A stretch of 64,000 bases of DNA from a virus (taxonomy: Duplodnaviria > Heunggongvirae > Uroviricota > Caudoviricetes): the IMG/VR virus record IMGVR_UViG_2541047857_000009; one strand, given 5' to 3'. Under the pieces are notes generated by a model. The model made no database searches. It saw nothing but the letters and a program-made list of their open reading frames with translations, and was not told where the DNA came from. A program made the translations under genes and the position numbers. Shown here in pieces: positions 40,160-58,194 of the stretch (position 1 is its first letter; every line of letters begins with the position of its first letter).

Positions 40160-40194
40160 CTCTGCAAAACCTCTGCAAAACCCCTCTGCAAAAC
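40160..40194. repeat. Triple direct repeat CTCTGCAAAAC at ompW/int junction (candidate att region)
   Basis: CTCTGCAAAAC at 40160, 40171 and 40184, between ompW stop and integrase 3' end. Confidence 0.6.
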
Positions 40195-40218
40195 TGGTCA
40201 TCAAATGACCAGTTTTTT
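40194..40218 (+). terminator. ompW intrinsic terminator overlapping integrase 3' end
   Basis: CTGGTCA-TCAAA-TGACCAG hairpin followed by TTTTTT. Confidence 0.65.
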
Positions 40219-41331
40219 CCATTCCTTACCGCGTGCGTCGTTGTAAATATCGGTCATTTTTTGATTCGAATGGCCCAGCAAAATTTTGGTATCAACCCCC
40301 TGCTCTCTGAACAATCGCTCTGATAAAGATCTCTGCTCATGGAAAGAGGGTGGGGTGCCATTAGCACGCCAGTTGTAATCCACAGAATCCCGGGCTTTTT
40401 TAAATGCAACGGTTAATGTTGCTGGCTTAACCATCCCGCCGCGCTTAGCTGTCCCTTTCGCGTGATGGTGGTGCAATAGCCACGGACTAAGAACGCAATC
40501 GCGGCAGGATGACACCACATCATCTAGGGTGAGATTTAATTTATCGCAACGCAGAGCCAGAGGGATGGCAATCCGGGTTCCTGTTTTTTGCTGTTCGACA
40601 TGAAGATAACCATCCCGGATATCCGAAAATTGCATTTTGCAAATATCTGAAAGGCGCTGGCCTGTCATCAGTGCCAGCAGCATACCGCGCTGTAAAAAGT
40701 AACCATCCTTTTCCGCTGCGTTATAAATCATCATCCACTCATCAAAAGTCAGTCGCTGTCTTGATATCCGCACCTGCGGTTTTTTTGCCGATTCTGCAGG
40801 GTTAAAGCCTGGCGGGACATCGCCCGTTTGCTGAGCTTCCCGGAAAACATCGATCAGTACTTTCCTGAAAATTTGTCCCATTCTGTTATGTCCTCTGGCC
40901 TTGTACTCTTCCAGTACTGATACCACATCTTTTACGGTTATGGCATCTAACGGTCTGGTGCCAAAACGTTCATCAAATACCCTGAGAGGGGCCGCTTTCT
41001 GTTTCAGCGTGTTGAGTTTGATCTCGCCGTTTTCATATCTTTCCTGTTGAATTTTTCTGTAATTATTCAGAAAAATGGTAACGGTTGATGAACCGCCGGT
41101 GTCACTAATAATTTTCTCCTGCAGACTGAGCATTTGTTCCATTTGCTGCCGGGCAAGACGGCTGTTCGCTTCTGCTGCAATAGTTTCTGCCAGTTTCTGG
41201 TCAATACTGCCGAGACCGTGATTTTTGCCTGTTATGGGATGCCTGTAACGCCAGTAAACTTTGTTATTTCTTTTGTCAAAATACGGAGATAATCCCGGAA
41301 CATCGGTTTTATATTTTCGCGGGCGCGCCAT
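40201..41331 (-). CDS. int: Tyrosine integrase
   Basis: C-terminal catalytic region with R, HxxR and Y (HSNQKMTDIYNDARG). Confidence 0.9.
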   Translation of the reverse strand: MARPRKYKTDVPGLSPYFDKRNNKVYWRYRHPITGKNHGLGSIDQKLAETIAAEANSRLARQQMEQMLSLQEKIISDTGGSSTVTIFLNNYRKIQQERYENGEIKLNTLKQKAAPLRVFDERFGTRPLDAITVKDVVSVLEEYKARGHNRMGQIFRKVLIDVFREAQQTGDVPPGFNPAESAKKPQVRISRQRLTFDEWMMIYNAAEKDGYFLQRGMLLALMTGQRLSDICKMQFSDIRDGYLHVEQQKTGTRIAIPLALRCDKLNLTLDDVVSSCRDCVLSPWLLHHHHAKGTAKRGGMVKPATLTVAFKKARDSVDYNWRANGTPPSFHEQRSLSERLFREQGVDTKILLGHSNQKMTDIYNDARGKEWKKLVI

Positions 41332-53393: not shown

Positions 53394-53768
53394 ATGCTCA
53401 TAGATTTGGTTTTACCTTACCCGCCGACGGTGAACACTTACTGGCGACGCCGTGGCAGCACATATTTTATCTCGGAGGAGGGAAAGCGTTATCGCCGGGC
53501 TGTGGCGCTTATTGTTCGCCAGCAGCGGCTGAAATTAAGCCTGTCCGGAAGGCTGGCGATAAAGGTGATTGCAGAGCCACCGGATAAGCGTCGTCGCGAC
53601 CTGGACAATATCCTGAAAGCACCGCTGGATGCGCTGACGCATGCGGGAGTGTTAATGGACGATGAGCAGTTTGATGAAATCAATATCGTTCGTGGTCAGC
53701 CAGTATCTGGTGGACGTATGGGGGTGAAGATTTACCCCATAATGCATGAAGAGCAGGTCAAAAAATGA
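53394..53768 (+). CDS. RusA-family Holliday junction resolvase
   Basis: PPTVNTYW and RRDLDNILKAPLDALT motifs; upstream of Q. Confidence 0.8.
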   Translation: MLIDLVLPYPPTVNTYWRRRGSTYFISEEGKRYRRAVALIVRQQRLKLSLSGRLAIKVIAEPPDKRRRDLDNILKAPLDALTHAGVLMDDEQFDEINIVRGQPVSGGRMGVKIYPIMHEEQVKK

Positions 53769-54586
53769 AACTGGAAGATTTACCGAAATACTACTCCCCA
53801 AAATCCCCTGGCCTGACCGATGCATCGGCCTCAACGTCAAAAGATGCGCTGAGTATCACTGATGTGATGGCCGCGCAGGGCATGACACAGAATCGGGCTG
53901 AGATGGGGTTTTCTGCGTTCCTGGGGAAAATGGGCATCAGTATGAATGACAGGGCGCGGGCAACAGAATTACTGGCAGATTATGCACTCAGTCGGTGCGA
54001 TCGTGTGGCGGCGTTGAGAAAACTTCCGGCAGAAATAAAACCGGTAGTGATGCGCATTATGGCTTCGTATGCGTTTGAAGATTATGCCCGTAGCGCGGCG
54101 AGCAAAAAACAGTGCCCTTGCTGTCACGGAAAAAAATTTATTGAAAGCGAGGTTTTTACAAACAAGATCCAGTATCCGGATGGTAAGCCACCAGTGTGGG
54201 CAAAGTGCACAAAAGGCGTGTATCCGTCTTACTGGGAAGAATGGAAAAAAGTCAGGGAGGTGGTAAAAGTTGCCTGTCCGGAGTGTGGCGGAAAGGGTGA
54301 GGTTTCCACCGCCTGTAAGGATTGCCGTGGGCGTGGTGTCGCCATTCATCGTGAAGAGTCGGTAAAACGTGGTATGCCTGTTATCAGAGATTGCCAGCGT
54401 TGTGGTGGTCGTGGCTGTGAAAGGCTGCCATCAACGGAGGCATTTAATGCCATATGCAAAGTGACGAGTGCTATCACGCTTGATACGTGGAAAAAATCAG
54501 TGAAACGCTTTTACGATACGTTGGTGGTTCGGTTTGACATTGAAGAGGCATGGGCGGAGCGGCAGTTAAAGAGGGTAACGCGATAG
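53765..54586 (+). CDS. Antiterminator Q (zinc-finger type)
   Basis: CPCCHG and CPECGGKGE...CKDCRGRG...CQRCGGRG zinc-binding motifs; followed by late terminator. Confidence 0.75.
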   Translation: MKLEDLPKYYSPKSPGLTDASASTSKDALSITDVMAAQGMTQNRAEMGFSAFLGKMGISMNDRARATELLADYALSRCDRVAALRKLPAEIKPVVMRIMASYAFEDYARSAASKKQCPCCHGKKFIESEVFTNKIQYPDGKPPVWAKCTKGVYPSYWEEWKKVREVVKVACPECGGKGEVSTACKDCRGRGVAIHREESVKRGMPVIRDCQRCGGRGCERLPSTEAFNAICKVTSAITLDTWKKSVKRFYDTLVVRFDIEEAWAERQLKRVTR

Positions 54587-54667
54587 TGTTGTTGATTTTT
54601 CCCGAATCTGTGGTAAATTTGCTCTAACGATGGGCGTTTTATGCCTGACGTTAGAAGATTTTTTACA

Positions 54668-54696
54668 CCCCGCCGCCTGGCGGGTTTTTTATGACT
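54668..54696 (+). terminator. tR'-like terminator downstream of Q
   Basis: CCCGCC-GCCT-GGCGGG hairpin followed by TTTTTTAT. Confidence 0.7.
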
Positions 54697-54810
54697 GAAA
54701 TCGCGTCAGTACAGTAAACGCGCTGGTGGCGGTGAATACCTGTCTTTCAGCTTGCTGGCTTTTTCGACAAGAGTTATTGGTGTGTCACGTTAACCGGAAA
54801 AGGAAAAGAC

Positions 54811-55008
54811 ATGCTAAAACAGCAGGATATGACAGAAACCGCCAGAGTGGTGTTTAATGAATTAAGCGTTACCGACCCGGCGACAGTCGGGGAGATAGCG
54901 CAGAATACTTACCTTTCACGCGAACGCTGCCAGTTAATACTGACTCAGCTGGTTATGGCGGGTCTGGCAGACTATCAGTTCGGTTGTTACAGACGCCTTC
55001 CGCAGTGA
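54811..55008 (+). CDS. Hypothetical small protein
   Basis: 65-aa ORF with AAAGGAAAAG SD-like sequence, followed by terminator. Confidence 0.45.
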   Translation: MLKQQDMTETARVVFNELSVTDPATVGEIAQNTYLSRERCQLILTQLVMAGLADYQFGCYRRLPQ

Positions 55009-55019
55009 AGGCTTTTTTA
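54995..55019 (+). terminator. Intrinsic terminator
   Basis: GCCTTC-CGCAGT-GAAGGC hairpin followed by TTTTTT. Confidence 0.6.
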
Positions 55020-55158
55020 TTTGTGGTAAATGGGCGGCTGGTGGGTGTTAGGGGCACCCACCAGCCATCTGCTCATGCGTCCGGATCACAAGCAAACCTC
55101 AGGCCCACTGCTTTGCGCAAAAGCAGAATGAGCCTATCAGAGACAGGCTTAATGATCC

Positions 55159-56208
55159 ATGCTTAATACTGTAAAAATATCCAGTTGTGAGTTAATCAAC
55201 GCCGACTGCCTGGAATTTATCCGGTCGTTACCCGAAAATTCTGTTGACCTGATAGTCACGGACCCGCCGTACTTTAAAGTGAAGCCTGAGGGCTGGGATA
55301 ACCAGTGGAAGGGCGACGATGATTACCTGAAGTGGCTGGACCAGTGTCTGGCGCAGTTCTGGCGGGTGCTGAAACCTGCCGGAAGTCTTTACCTGTTCTG
55401 TGGTCATCGCCTGGCATCTGATATCGAAATCATGATGCGTGAACGCTTCAGTGTGCTGAACCATATTATCTGGGCGAAGCCGTCCGGACGCTGGAACGGA
55501 TGCAACAAGGAAAGCCTGCGGGCGTATTTCCCCGCCACAGAGCGCATTCTGTTCGCGGAACATTATCAGGGGCCGTATCGTCCGAAAGATGCCGGGTATG
55601 CGGCGAAGGGCAGTGCACTGAAACAGCATGTGATGGCCCCGCTGATTTCTTACTTTCGTGATGCGCGCGCGGCCCTGGGGATAACGGCAAAACAGATTGC
55701 AGATGCCACAGGAAAGAAAAACATGGTGTCGCACTGGTTCAGTGCCAGTCAGTGGCAGCTACCGAATGAAAGCGATTATCTGAAATTACAGGCGCTGTTT
55801 GCCCGGGTGGCAGAAGAGAAGCATCGGCGTGGTGAACTGGAAAAGCTCCACCACCAGCTGGTGGATACGTATACCTCACTGAACCGGCAGTATGCGGAGC
55901 TGCTGAGTGAATATAAACATCTGCGGCGGTATTTTGGCGTGACGGTGCAGGTGCCGTATACCGATGTGTGGACGCATAAACCGGTGCAGTTCTATCCCGG
56001 GAAACATCCGTGCGAAAAACCGGCAGAAATGCTGCAGCAGATAATCAGCGCAAGTAGCCGTCCTGGTGATCTGGTTGCGGATTTTTTCATGGGGTCGGGT
56101 TCAACGGTAAAAGCGGCGATGGCACTGGGGCGTCGTGCGATTGGTGTTGAGCTGGAGACCGGACGTTTTGAGCAGACAGTCAGGGAAGTTCAGGATTTAA
56201 TCGTTTGA
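55159..56208 (+). CDS. DNA N6-adenine (or N4-cytosine) methyltransferase, orphan
   Basis: DPPY catalytic motif (VTDPPYF) and SAM-binding FFMGSGST; no adjacent restriction gene seen. Confidence 0.85.
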   Translation: MLNTVKISSCELINADCLEFIRSLPENSVDLIVTDPPYFKVKPEGWDNQWKGDDDYLKWLDQCLAQFWRVLKPAGSLYLFCGHRLASDIEIMMRERFSVLNHIIWAKPSGRWNGCNKESLRAYFPATERILFAEHYQGPYRPKDAGYAAKGSALKQHVMAPLISYFRDARAALGITAKQIADATGKKNMVSHWFSASQWQLPNESDYLKLQALFARVAEEKHRRGELEKLHHQLVDTYTSLNRQYAELLSEYKHLRRYFGVTVQVPYTDVWTHKPVQFYPGKHPCEKPAEMLQQIISASSRPGDLVADFFMGSGSTVKAAMALGRRAIGVELETGRFEQTVREVQDLIV

Positions 56209-56257
56209 AACGGATGAGATTGCAGAATTAATTACGCACCATTATTATTCTGCTCCC

Positions 56258-56333
56258 GGCCCTTTAGCTCAGTGGTGAGAGCGAGCGACTCATAATCGCC
56301 AGGTCGCTGGTTCAAATCCAGCAAGGGCCACCA
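56258..56333 (+). tRNA. tRNA with CAT anticodon (ileX/ileZ-like; Ile2 or Met)
   Basis: GGCCCTTTAGCTCAGTGG...CTCATAA...TTCAAATCC...GGGCCACCA; perfect acceptor stem. Confidence 0.85.
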
Positions 56334-56340
56334 TCACATA

Positions 56341-56417
56341 CCGCCATTAGCTCATCAGGAAAGAGCGCCAGCCTTCGAAGCTGGTTGCGCGGAGTTCGGG
56401 TCCCCGAAGGCGGTCCA
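56341..56417 (+). tRNA. tRNA-Arg-like (anticodon TCG), degenerate stems
   Basis: Clear anticodon arm CCAGC-CTTCGAA-GCTGG, D-stem GCTC/GAGC, T-loop TTCGGGT, 3' TCCA; mismatches in acceptor and T stems. Confidence 0.45.
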
Positions 56418-56440
56418 TTATCTGTATCCTGCGTTGTTAG

Positions 56441-56517
56441 CTCAGCCGGACAGAGCAATTGCCTTCTAAGCAATCGGTCACTGGTTCGAATCCAGTACAA
56501 CGCGCCACACTTATTTT
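56441..56517 (+). tRNA. tRNA-Arg (anticodon TCT)
   Basis: Perfect cloverleaf: acceptor GCGTTGT/ACAACGC, anticodon loop CTTCTAA, T-loop TTCGAAT, 3' GCCA. Confidence 0.85.
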
Positions 56518-56522
56518 CCCTG

Positions 56523-56548
56523 GCTCGCTTTTGCGGGCTTTTTTTTAA
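56523..56548 (+). terminator. Intrinsic terminator after tRNA cluster
   Basis: GCTCGC-TTTT-GCGGGC hairpin followed by TTTTTTTT. Confidence 0.6.
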
Positions 56549-56550
56549 AT

Positions 56551-56767
56551 GTCTCACAATTCAGGCGGTTGACTGTTGTCTGGTTTGCGGGGAGTTTGTT
56601 AAAAGAAACTGGCATGGTGAATCCCCCTGTGCGGAGGGGCAATCAGCGAGTAGGTATATGGGATAATCGCGGATTCAGGTGCTGGTACTGAATTCACCGG
56701 GAGGCACCCGGCACCATGCAATGGCACATAGCGCCACTCTCCAGCCCCTCTCCGGAGGGGCTTTTCT
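56551..56767 (+). ncRNA. Putative structured sRNA-like module, copy A
   Basis: Shares blocks CTCACAATTCAG, TTGACNGTTG, GCATGGTGAATCCCCCTG-GCGGAGGGGC, CACCGGGAGGCACCCGGCACCATG with copy B; ends in GCCCCTC-TCCG-GAGGGGC plus TTTTCT. Confidence 0.45.
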
Positions 56768-57020
56768 GTGCCGGATACATCACAGTTTCTGGAACCTTAG
56801 GTACTACAGTATCAGTCAGGGTGCTATATTTTCAGATGTGATGAAAGCCTGTCAGCAGGCAGGGCGTATCGGAAATGACCCAGTAGAGAAAACGTTGACT
56901 CAGATACCGGTGCTGAGTTACCGGGAAACCGGCATCACATGACCGCTATCCTTCCAGGCCCATCCGCTCCGGTGGGCCTTTTTACTGCAGAAAACAGGTT
57001 CCCCGTTAAATGCTATGTTG

Positions 57021-57253
57021 CTCACAATTCAGTAAGTTGACAGTTGCCTGTCAGACTGGGCATTTGTTAAAAAAATTTCGCATGGTGAATCCCCCTGAGC
57101 GGAGGGGCGACTGGTGACGGTATAATCTCTGATTATCAAAACGAGAATGACGCGGGTTTAGTGGCACCGGGCTGAACTCACCGGGAGGCACCCGGCACCA
57201 TGTGCATGATGATACAGATACGCGGCTTTAGCCCCTCTCCGGAGGGGTTTTCT
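57021..57253 (+). ncRNA. Putative structured sRNA-like module, copy B
   Basis: Same conserved blocks and terminal hairpin as copy A; contains TATAAT near 57130. Confidence 0.45.
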
Positions 57254-57482
57254 TGTGGGCAAAAAAAGCCCGCGCTGGGAGACGCGGGCGGCAAGGAATA
57301 AACAATAAAACGTGAAGTAATATTTCAGCTGGCGAATAATACCCCATAGTAATCACTCTGCGCAACTGCGCGGTCTTTTTCGAATTGCGGGCTGTCGTCT
57401 CTCTTCTGCCATTGTCCTGTAACTTCCGGACTTCAGCCCGCTCCTTATTTTACTCACAATATTATCCCGGCCGGGAGGATTC

Positions 57483-57710
57483 ATGGCATTTAAACACTAT
57501 GACGTGGTCAGGGCGGTATCGCCGTCAGACCTTGCGAAACGACTGACACAAAAACTGAAGGAGGGCTGGCAGCCGTTTGGTAGTCCGGTGGCCATAACCC
57601 CTTATACCCTGATGCAGGCGATTGCAGCAGAAGGTGATGTGGTGGTCAGTGGTGCAACTGAGCCGGATTGGTACTACGTCATCGTACTGGCCCGGCATTC
57701 CAGGCCATAA
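57483..57710 (+). CDS. Hypothetical protein
   Basis: 75-aa ORF with strong SD GGGAGG six nt before ATG. Confidence 0.55.
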   Translation: MAFKHYDVVRAVSPSDLAKRLTQKLKEGWQPFGSPVAITPYTLMQAIAAEGDVVVSGATEPDWYYVIVLARHSRP

Positions 57711-57978
57711 AAGACAGTCTGGCAGTGGGACTAAATGCACTGACGCTGATGGATATTACCAAAAATGTAACGTATGGCGTTGAGATAGAAAGTCTGGCGC
57801 TGGAGATAAATGCACCGGCATCATCATAAAAAGTGAGCCAGTCAAATGGAAGGTATCGTTAAACTCACCGGTAGTGTCAGTGGGTCGTCTGAGACGCTTG
57901 CATGAGTTATCAGAGCCATCAGTAGTTAACTGGTGGCTTTTTTATTGTTTTCAGCTTCCGGATAACGGGAGACGGGGT

Positions 57979-58194
57979 ATGGACCAGATGGAAAAAATCA
58001 CAACAGGTGTGTCATACACCACGTCAGCGGTGGGAACGGGCTACTGGTTCCTGCAGTTGCTGGACAGGGTTTCCCCGTCTCAGTGGGCGGCAATAGGCGT
58101 GCTGGGGAGTCTGCTGTTTGGGCTGCTGACATATCTGACTAACCTGTATTTCAAAATCAGAGAGGACCGTCGTAAGGCGGCACGGGGAGAGTAA
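57979..58194 (+). CDS. Holin (EssQ/EssD, phage 21 S-type)
   Basis: [29 protein letters not shown]...[15 protein letters not shown]; dual-start Met-X-X-Met. Confidence 0.85.

Follow-up and report, generated by a model that had tools for sequence, protein, structure and literature searches.

The DNA analysed here, called the window below, is one stretch of 64,000 nucleotides (IMG/VR record IMGVR_UViG_2541047857_000009), and it carries a lambdoid prophage whose integrase gene lies at 40201-41331. The late region is arranged in the order DUF968 protein, RusA, Q, pR'/tR', a 65-aa ORF, a terminator, the hairpin studied here, a methylase gene, tRNA genes, STnc100 and holin. The Q gene (53765-54586) matches PF03589, and its 273-aa antiterminator product contains DnaJ-type CXXCXGXG zinc-finger repeats besides the Antiterm (PF03589) domains. 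Downstream of it lies a late promoter region (54594-54690) with a close resemblance to lambda pR'. A putative pause-like element, AACGAT, follows pR', and a short transcript from this promoter would end at tR' (54669-54690). Because a lambda-like pR'/tR' stands downstream of Q, the hairpin lies within a Q-antiterminated late operon. The module is common to phages with differing Q genes, and its left boundary is at tR'. [quoted passage not shown] The features around the hairpin are the following.

54594-54690, plus strand: late promoter pR' (TTGATT-17-TAAATT) and terminator tR' (54669-54690), downstream of the Q gene
54811-55008, plus strand: small ORF of 65 aa (phrog_331) with a weak TrmB-like winged-helix match
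54995-55022, plus strand: intrinsic terminator GCCTTC-CGCAGT-GAAGGC plus TTTTTTATTT, with a 6-bp stem and a 6-nt loop, overlapping the small-ORF stop codon
55024-55164, plus strand: methylase leader of ~140 nt, non-coding, with the composite hairpin, further candidate helices and a start region free of a Shine-Dalgarno (SD) sequence
55030-55076, plus strand: composite stem-loop, made of a lower stem, a 4-nt 3' bulge and the 12-bp hairpin on top
55031-55035 with 55103-55107, plus strand: candidate leader helix UGGGC/GCCCA of the leader model
55036-55047, plus strand: left (5') arm GGCTGGTGGGTG, invariant in all major E. coli phage haplotypes
55048-55054, plus strand: loop TTAGGGG, where RNAfold adds two U·G pairs and leaves a 3-nt loop
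55055-55066, plus strand: right (3') arm CACCCACCAGCC, which pairs with the left arm
55071-55077 with 55087-55093, plus strand: candidate leader helix P1b, GCUCAUG/CACAAGC, of the leader model
within 55108-55126, plus strand: candidate leader helix CUGCUUU/AAAGCAG of the leader model
55159-56208, plus strand: predicted beta-class N6-adenine DNA methyltransferase of 349 aa (PF01555), of the M.EcoGI/M.EcoGII family

An initial annotation of this DNA had described a perfect 12-bp stem-loop, GGCTGGTGGGTG-TTAGGGG-CACCCACCAGCC, at 55036-55066. Letters and coordinates agree exactly with the window, and a repeat finder returned the 12-nt inverted repeat with arms that are 100% complementary. The stem-loop was said to stand directly after a terminator, upstream of a methyltransferase gene and without a T-run of its own, and all of this holds: the canonical terminator occupies 54995-55022 with the hairpin 13 nt further downstream, ATCTGCTCATGCG comes directly 3' of the hairpin, and the ORF at 55159-56208, whose ATG is 92 nt from the hairpin, matches PF01555 with E = 4e-43. 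Among E. coli phages the stem of the terminator at 54995-55022 is conserved and its loop variable. The TrmB match of the 65-aa ORF falls below the Pfam threshold. This phrog_331 ORF precedes the leader and the methylase in most genera, and about a dozen methylase loci retain the hairpin with no tblastn match for the small ORF.

On the other side of the methylase gene lies a cluster of three tRNA genes (56258-56507; anticodons CAT, TCG and TCT), the first of which is called Met by ARAGORN and tRNA-Ile (ileZ) in RefSeq annotations of homologous prophages. In Stx phages the tRNA cluster is directly upstream of stx. Downstream of the tRNA genes the prophage sRNA STnc100 (RF02076) is present in strong copies at 56583-56773 and 57051-57260 and in a weak one at 56812-56985. 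The known prophage sRNAs Pas, STnc100, AgvB and AsxR were considered as identities of the hairpin element and set aside, as they belong to other sites, near esterase or holin genes.

The hairpin is not a product of chance. Folded as RNA it reaches -26.5 kcal/mol (z = -4.9 against dinucleotide shuffles), a value equalled by 0 of 200 shuffles. The window contains two perfect 12-bp hairpins with loops of 3-10 nt, against a mean of 0.047 in 300 dinucleotide shuffles, of which 10 contain any such hairpin; even at 3 mismatches, the sequence of the present one is unique within the window. The other perfect hairpin, AAAACTGGTCAT-CAA-ATGACCAGTTTT, is AT-rich and lies at 40190-40216, just downstream of the integrase gene. 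The initial annotation had missed a lower helix, in which AUGGGC (55030-55035) pairs with GCUCAU (55071-55076), the bulge AUCU (55067-55070) separating it on the 3' side from the 12-bp stem. The resulting composite stem-loop of ~47 nt folds at -33.7 kcal/mol (z = -4.15).

With 12 perfect pairs and its folding energy, the hairpin provides the stable GC-rich stem-loop of an intrinsic terminator, but not the U-tract (at least 4-5 U in 8 nt, beginning 0-2 nt past the stem): AUCUGCUCAUGCG follows instead, and the terminator scan omits the hairpin. Since the U-tract is absent, termination by the E. coli hairpin alone is not to be expected. A sigma-70 promoter candidate, TGTGAAAAT/TGGTAAAT, lies just upstream and would start transcription at the base of the hairpin, which could then serve as a 5' stabiliser; it was rejected as the main reading because the -11 A or the -7 T is absent in most variants. 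A consensus scan of both strands of the window found no promoter. Full-text literature searches with the arm sequences returned only unrelated primers and aptamers.

Within E. coli the element is common. The region is present in 24 deposited phages, mostly Stx2 and phiP27-like, and the leader occurs in 2109 of 5426 complete E. coli genomes (about 40%), with up to 7 copies per genome. The left arm is virtually unchanged among the copies in IMG/VR and GenBank. The right arm occurs in the variants CACTCACCAGCC, CACCTGCCAGCC and CACCTGTCAGTC, which arise by transitions only (C>T or A>G), each of them leading to a G·U pair in the sense RNA, and the loop varies by transversions in relatives. No compensatory changes were found among the E. 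coli phages, where only one-sided changes to G·U occur and the shuffle control was uninformative; these sequences are too similar for covariation to appear. All E. coli-level copies are 90-100% identical over the entire region, so invariance at this level carries little information.

Distant relatives proved decisive: relatives of the methylase were sought in one genome per species. This gave 80 loci with 61-98% protein identity to the methylase of the window, from Escherichia, Salmonella, Citrobacter, Klebsiella, Enterobacter, Kluyvera, Buttiauxella, Mixta, Erwinia, Morganella, Providencia, Proteus, Photorhabdus and Xenorhabdus; two had no upstream sequence, which left 78 usable. The initial annotation had named conservation as a check, and conservation proved to be strong: a hairpin stands at the equivalent position in 76 of the 78 species-level loci. 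It can be seen that, first, 47 loci carry the full leader (cmsearch E < 1e-20), alignable over ~140 nt from GUG(R)AAAUGGGC to the AUG. Secondly, 29 loci, of Photorhabdus and Xenorhabdus, carry a short hairpin module, GGUGAA-AUG-N-[hairpin]-UUCACC. The leader is missing at the remaining two methylase loci (L200 and L216). A covariance model (R1), built from a MAFFT alignment and a hand-drawn structure, scores 55024-55164 at 124 bits, its sole strong match in the window.

Column identity in the leader is 0.75-0.84, compared with 0.44 at third codon positions of the methylase and ~0.5 in the upstream ORF. The leader is thus conserved above the neutral level and at a fixed position relative to one gene family, and, judged by these comparisons, it is under purifying selection. 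Reading frames inside it are not conserved. A leader peptide starting at the invariant AUG at 55030 was considered and rejected, as this codon has no SD and its ORF is of 7, 18 or 33 codons depending on the lineage, in an unconserved frame. A scan of 53500-58000 and of four diverse homologous loci against Rfam 15 (E <= 1) gave no credible family over the leader; the sub-threshold overlaps, P26 on the minus strand (E = 0.35) and mir-5881 (E = 0.08), are hairpin noise. Known riboswitch classes, for example SAM or SAH, were likewise dropped for want of an Rfam match.

The helix of the hairpin also covaries between genera. In 48 distinct leaders realigned with the model, 7 of the 12 pairs have changed on both sides and 97.6% of cells are paired (97.9% over the composite stem-loop), counts that come from related sequences in an alignment fitted to the model. 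None of 500 shuffles reached the observed values, and slid controls yielded 1-3 two-sided pairs. Compensated stems can be read in the raw sequence as well, as GACUGUAAAGGUG/CACCCUUACAGUC in Providencia and GACAGUGAGGAUG/CAUCCCCGCUGUC in Proteus. A single additional base bulges out of the 3' arm in most genera, so that the arms are of 12 and 13 nt. The hairpin is the most conserved part of an apparently undescribed structured leader, which precedes M.EcoGI/M.EcoGII-family methylase genes in prophages of the lambdoid type, with a range that extends from Escherichia to Proteus.

Many Xenorhabdus loci have UUUU(A/C) after the homologous hairpin, so that it forms a canonical intrinsic terminator; a few retain nothing of the hairpin but the lower stem. 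The U-tract is absent in Photorhabdus and the Enterobacteriaceae. The space between the small ORF and the methylase gene always contains at least one strong sense-strand hairpin, which fits the insulation of a deleterious gene from transcription by polymerase that is not Q-modified.

The strand on which the structure is formed can be judged from the wobble pairs. In the hairpin, 30 cells would be G·U and 7 A·C on the sense strand, and variation in the lower stem is limited to G·U, G-C and A-U. All 26 distinct Xenorhabdus and Photorhabdus modules fold better as sense RNA (for example, -25.5 versus -12.6 kcal/mol), with 70 G·U among 399 pairs, and the phiP27 allele folds at -63 kcal/mol on the sense and -46 on the antisense strand. 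Covariation across genera, together with G·U pairs that exist on the sense strand only, indicates that selection has acted on a structure which the methylase sense strand forms as a single strand. Whole-leader folding energy and alifold were also tried for strand assignment and were uninformative, the strands being nearly equal: mean z was -3.3 for sense and -3.6 for antisense, and alifold gave -31.5 versus -35.3 (-90.6 versus -88.9 with RIBOSUM scoring). Helix P1b (55071-55077 with 55087-55093) shows tandem C·A/A·C mismatches that become wobble pairs on the antisense strand only (93 cells versus 0), a preference that conflicts with that of the hairpin. In helix P3, 23 cells pair on antisense only and 2 on sense only. 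By such comparisons the sense strand seems the better candidate for the hairpin and lower stem; elsewhere the leader looks ambiguous.

The main rival explanation starts from these antisense-preferring helices. A cis-antisense small RNA might be transcribed on the minus strand from the start of the methylase ORF back through the leader and repress the toxic methylase; it would end at the hairpin, GGCUGGUGGGUG-CCCCUAA-CACCCACCAGCC followed by GCCCAUUU, with the hairpin as its 3' terminator stem. Besides P1b and P3, several observations agree with such an RNA. Third positions of methylase codons 1-10 (window 55159-55190) are 0.85 identical across genera, versus ~0.44 elsewhere in the gene; a weak minus-strand promoter-like motif (TCAACA-16-TATTTT, or TACAGT) lies over these codons in 31 of 49 loci; the left edge of conservation is a sense A-run, that is, an antisense U-run beside a GC-rich stem; and alifold is slightly better on the antisense strand. 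The hairpin and lower stem themselves, however, carry sense-only G·U pairs, and the antisense fold is the poorer one in every Xenorhabdus and Photorhabdus module and in phiP27. The U-run is just 2-4 nt long and lies 5 nt away from the stem, the -11 A of the candidate -10 element is missing in about a quarter of the sequences, and the consensus scan gave no promoter on the minus strand of the window either. From the copy in the window alone, a minus-strand terminator reading was judged weak, with GCCCAUUUACC after the stem, and was not retained. Control of toxic genes by cis-antisense RNA is known from type I toxin-antitoxin systems (hok/sok) and from antisense RNAs of restriction-modification systems. 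The present locus resembles them in having a toxic gene silent in the lysogen and in its hints, where the ORF begins, of a minus-strand promoter and, in part of the leader, of antisense-specific pairing, and differs from them in that the hairpin prefers the sense strand and the promoter and terminator signals are weak. An antisense RNA is, in our estimate, unlikely to be what the hairpin serves.

A second explanation places the selected property in the DNA. The Chi octamer GCTGGTGG, overlooked by the initial annotation, is present in both arms, at 55037-55044 (+) in the left and at 55058-55065 (-) in the right. The plus strand is the sense of Q, methylase and holin, the late-sense or 'top' strand. 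From 40201 to 64000 there are 12 plus-strand and 4 minus-strand Chi sites, versus 0.53 and 0.27 in shuffles. Of the four on the bottom strand, two exist as a consequence of a palindrome, one in the hairpin and one in CCACCAGCTGGTGG. The latter is a second Chi palindrome at 55851-55864, within the methylase ORF (codons H-H-Q-L-V), in which two Chi overlap by two bases. The protein of phage 1720a-02 reads HHQLL there, so this palindrome is probably not conserved.

In Chi-rich lambdoid phages relying on host RecBCD, top-strand Chi sites are clustered near the right end, and the active orientation is that of the top, late-sense strand (Zheng et al., PMC12315714); that paper makes no mention of hairpins or palindromes. 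The Chi pattern of the prophage matches this Chi-rich class and is similar to that of the class which Zheng et al. 2025 (PMC12315714) describe as 'no Rec module, high Chi'. The left-arm site likewise matches the octamer exactly, and it lies on the top strand, within the right-end region of a Chi-rich prophage, in an orientation that should suit RecBCD entering from the cos-proximal right end; here it lies inside the arm of an RNA structure and is dispensable for that structure in Providencia and Proteus.

The plus-strand Chi is retained in most Enterobacteriaceae leaders, which, with the Chi-richness of the prophage and the crossovers described below, speaks for a Chi element. The minus-strand Chi, however, is found only in the perfect right-arm allele and has been lost in most E. 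coli alleles (CACTCACC, CACCTGCC), where G·U preserves the pairing, and the compensated stems of Providencia and Proteus have replaced Chi entirely. Chi recognition requires no hairpin. Since Chi needs none, and since it is lost where the stem is kept, Chi explains part of the left-arm sequence and not the structure. It is probably functional as a secondary, DNA-level property of the left arm, and it is quite unlikely to be the reason for the hairpin.

The hairpin also lies at a mosaic junction of the E. coli phages. In class B phages (e.g. PhiR5_1) homology ends right after the left arm, and in class C phages (e.g. Stx2k) a degenerate hairpin is followed by a different gene. In many phages Chi recurs ~2.03 kb downstream, within the stretch GCTGGTGGCGGGTGT of a small DUF3927 gene; this stretch is absent from the window itself. 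Class B corresponds to a recurrent deletion of ~2.03 kb between the direct repeats GCTGGTGGGTGT of the hairpin and GCTGGTGGCGGGTGT downstream, compared over 16 loci (L260, E2348/69, 3100 versus 5130; L001, PhiR5_1, 2870-2890). The deletion loses the right arm of the hairpin, the methylase gene and the tRNA genes, and its junction is 4 nt 3' of Chi. The crossover of this recurrent deletion of ~2 kb takes place at the Chi-containing stretch of the left arm.

Classes B and C bear on a third explanation, that the hairpin has no present function in E. coli and is a decaying terminator remnant kept by linkage and by the youth of the prophage modules. The class B phages, which are without half the hairpin, and the class C phages, which have a degenerate arm, are presumably viable; the U-tract is gone, and the near-identity of the E. 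coli copies makes their invariance little informative. Against a remnant, compensatory pairing has been kept between genera whose methylases are 61-80% identical, and conservation of the leader is roughly double that of synonymous sites. We regard a mere remnant as very unlikely.

The initial annotation had also offered a protein binding site, and a palindromic DNA operator for a dimeric regulator, possibly the adjacent 65-aa winged-helix protein by analogy with the controller-protein boxes of restriction-modification systems, is the least probable reading and a highly improbable one. It would agree with the perfect 12-bp inverted repeat of the window, whose arm centres are 19 bp apart, and with the small HTH-like ORF immediately upstream, which is found beside the methylase in most genera; half-sites that co-vary symmetrically could also look like covarying base pairs. 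Yet the half-sites, symmetric in the window, are not conserved as a symmetric pair, because the right arm is one base longer in most genera and the arms are out of register, and a symmetric operator, unlike an RNA helix, could not accommodate a one-sided bulge; asymmetries of the G·U type are common, the hairpin persists at the loci lacking a small-ORF match, the TrmB match is sub-threshold, and the flanking lower stem and leader are conserved and structured too. A binding site of this kind is therefore disfavoured. The other proposal of the initial annotation, an RNA processing or stability element, is broadly right in so far as it implies a selected RNA structure on the sense strand, as covariation, sense-only G·U pairs and the conserved leader indicate.

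The preferred reading, a sense-strand RNA element, is tied to the gene that follows. The translation of this gene contains the DPPY (N-terminal) and FMGSGS (C-terminal FxGxG) motifs of a methylase; the protein shares 98% identity with its syntenic counterpart of 349 aa in E. coli O104:H4 2009EL-2050 and 95% with the methylase of phage 1720a-02. The 1720a-02 methylase is very similar to M.EcoGII (Murray et al., PMC5778455), and through the 1720a-02 and O104:H4 enzymes the present protein is assigned to the M.EcoGI/M.EcoGII family as a predicted non-specific adenine methylase. M.EcoGII is a non-specific adenine methylase that is silent in the lysogen; clones expressing it constitutively grow slowly and are unstable, and no mechanism for the silence of its gene in the lysogen is offered (PMC5778455). 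The start codon of the present gene (55150-55161 region) has no Shine-Dalgarno sequence, and its surroundings are A-rich and highly conserved, so further translational control by the leader is plausible. In-frame TAA and TGA codons stand just 5' of the start, and all 49 aligned leaders have GATC at -8 to -5.

Structure, conservation, covariation, the preference of the helix for the sense strand and linkage to the methylase gene were all observed by sequence analysis. That the hairpin acts as a sense-strand RNA cis-element has, in our view, about an even chance of being correct. With the same middling confidence, the best explanation is that an RNA stem-loop derived from a terminator contributes, within the late transcript, to restricting or processing the expression of a deleterious methylase. 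On this explanation the hairpin would be the apical helix of a composite stem-loop of ~47 nt at the 5' end of the ~140-nt leader, and this stem-loop would be related by evolution to an intrinsic terminator whose U-tract was kept in Xenorhabdus and lost in E. coli. tR', the adjacent terminator, the stem-loop and the remaining leader would together silence the methylase unless RNA polymerase is Q-modified. In the late transcript, the intercistronic stem-loop might then set the processing or stability of the mRNA and the access to the SD-less start codon. We infer that transcription is late only and that the effect is on termination, processing or translation.

Two kinds of known elements are comparable with such a stem-loop. 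Like intrinsic terminators, including those of the lambdoid tR' type, it is an intergenic GC-rich stem-loop, with Xenorhabdus homologues that end in UUUU(A/C); the sense A-run on its 5' side resembles the A-tract of bidirectional terminators. It differs from intrinsic terminators in having no U-tract in the window and other Enterobacteriaceae, in its longer stem (12 + 6 bp) and in its position inside a conserved leader of ~140 nt. The second kind consists of the RNase III processing and stability hairpins of phages, such as the T7 R1.1-type signals, lambda sib and the N-leader sites. By analogy with these, the composite structure would be an irregular hairpin of ~18-20 bp that has an asymmetric internal loop and separates two cistrons of a long phage transcript, and cleavage by RNase III would leave a protective 3' hairpin on the upstream RNA. 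Set against the substrate of RNase III, some two turns (~20 bp) of largely double-stranded RNA in which an internal loop is common, the predicted fold offers 6 + 12 bp plus two loop-closing U·G pairs, with a 4-nt asymmetric loop; the sequence has no similarity to those sites.

A broader proposal is possible, and we put it forward tentatively. The ~140-nt leader may be an undescribed riboregulatory element, possibly a sense leader together with a cis-antisense RNA, that gates an M.EcoGII-family methylase in lambdoid prophages of the Enterobacterales, and the Chi of its left arm may at the same time offer a portable site of crossover by which the methylase-tRNA module is gained and lost. If true, this riboregulatory element would explain how a toxic methylase is kept silent in lysogens. 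The enzyme M.EcoGII is in wide use for non-specific 6mA 'footprinting', and its relatives are often encoded immediately upstream of stx genes. The structured leader with its covarying stem-loop is a candidate for the control by which the methylase is silenced and a new RNA motif for curation, and the overlap of an RNA helix with Chi, as a point of deletion or crossover, provides a worked example of the shuffling of Chi-rich lambdoid modules beside toxin genes.
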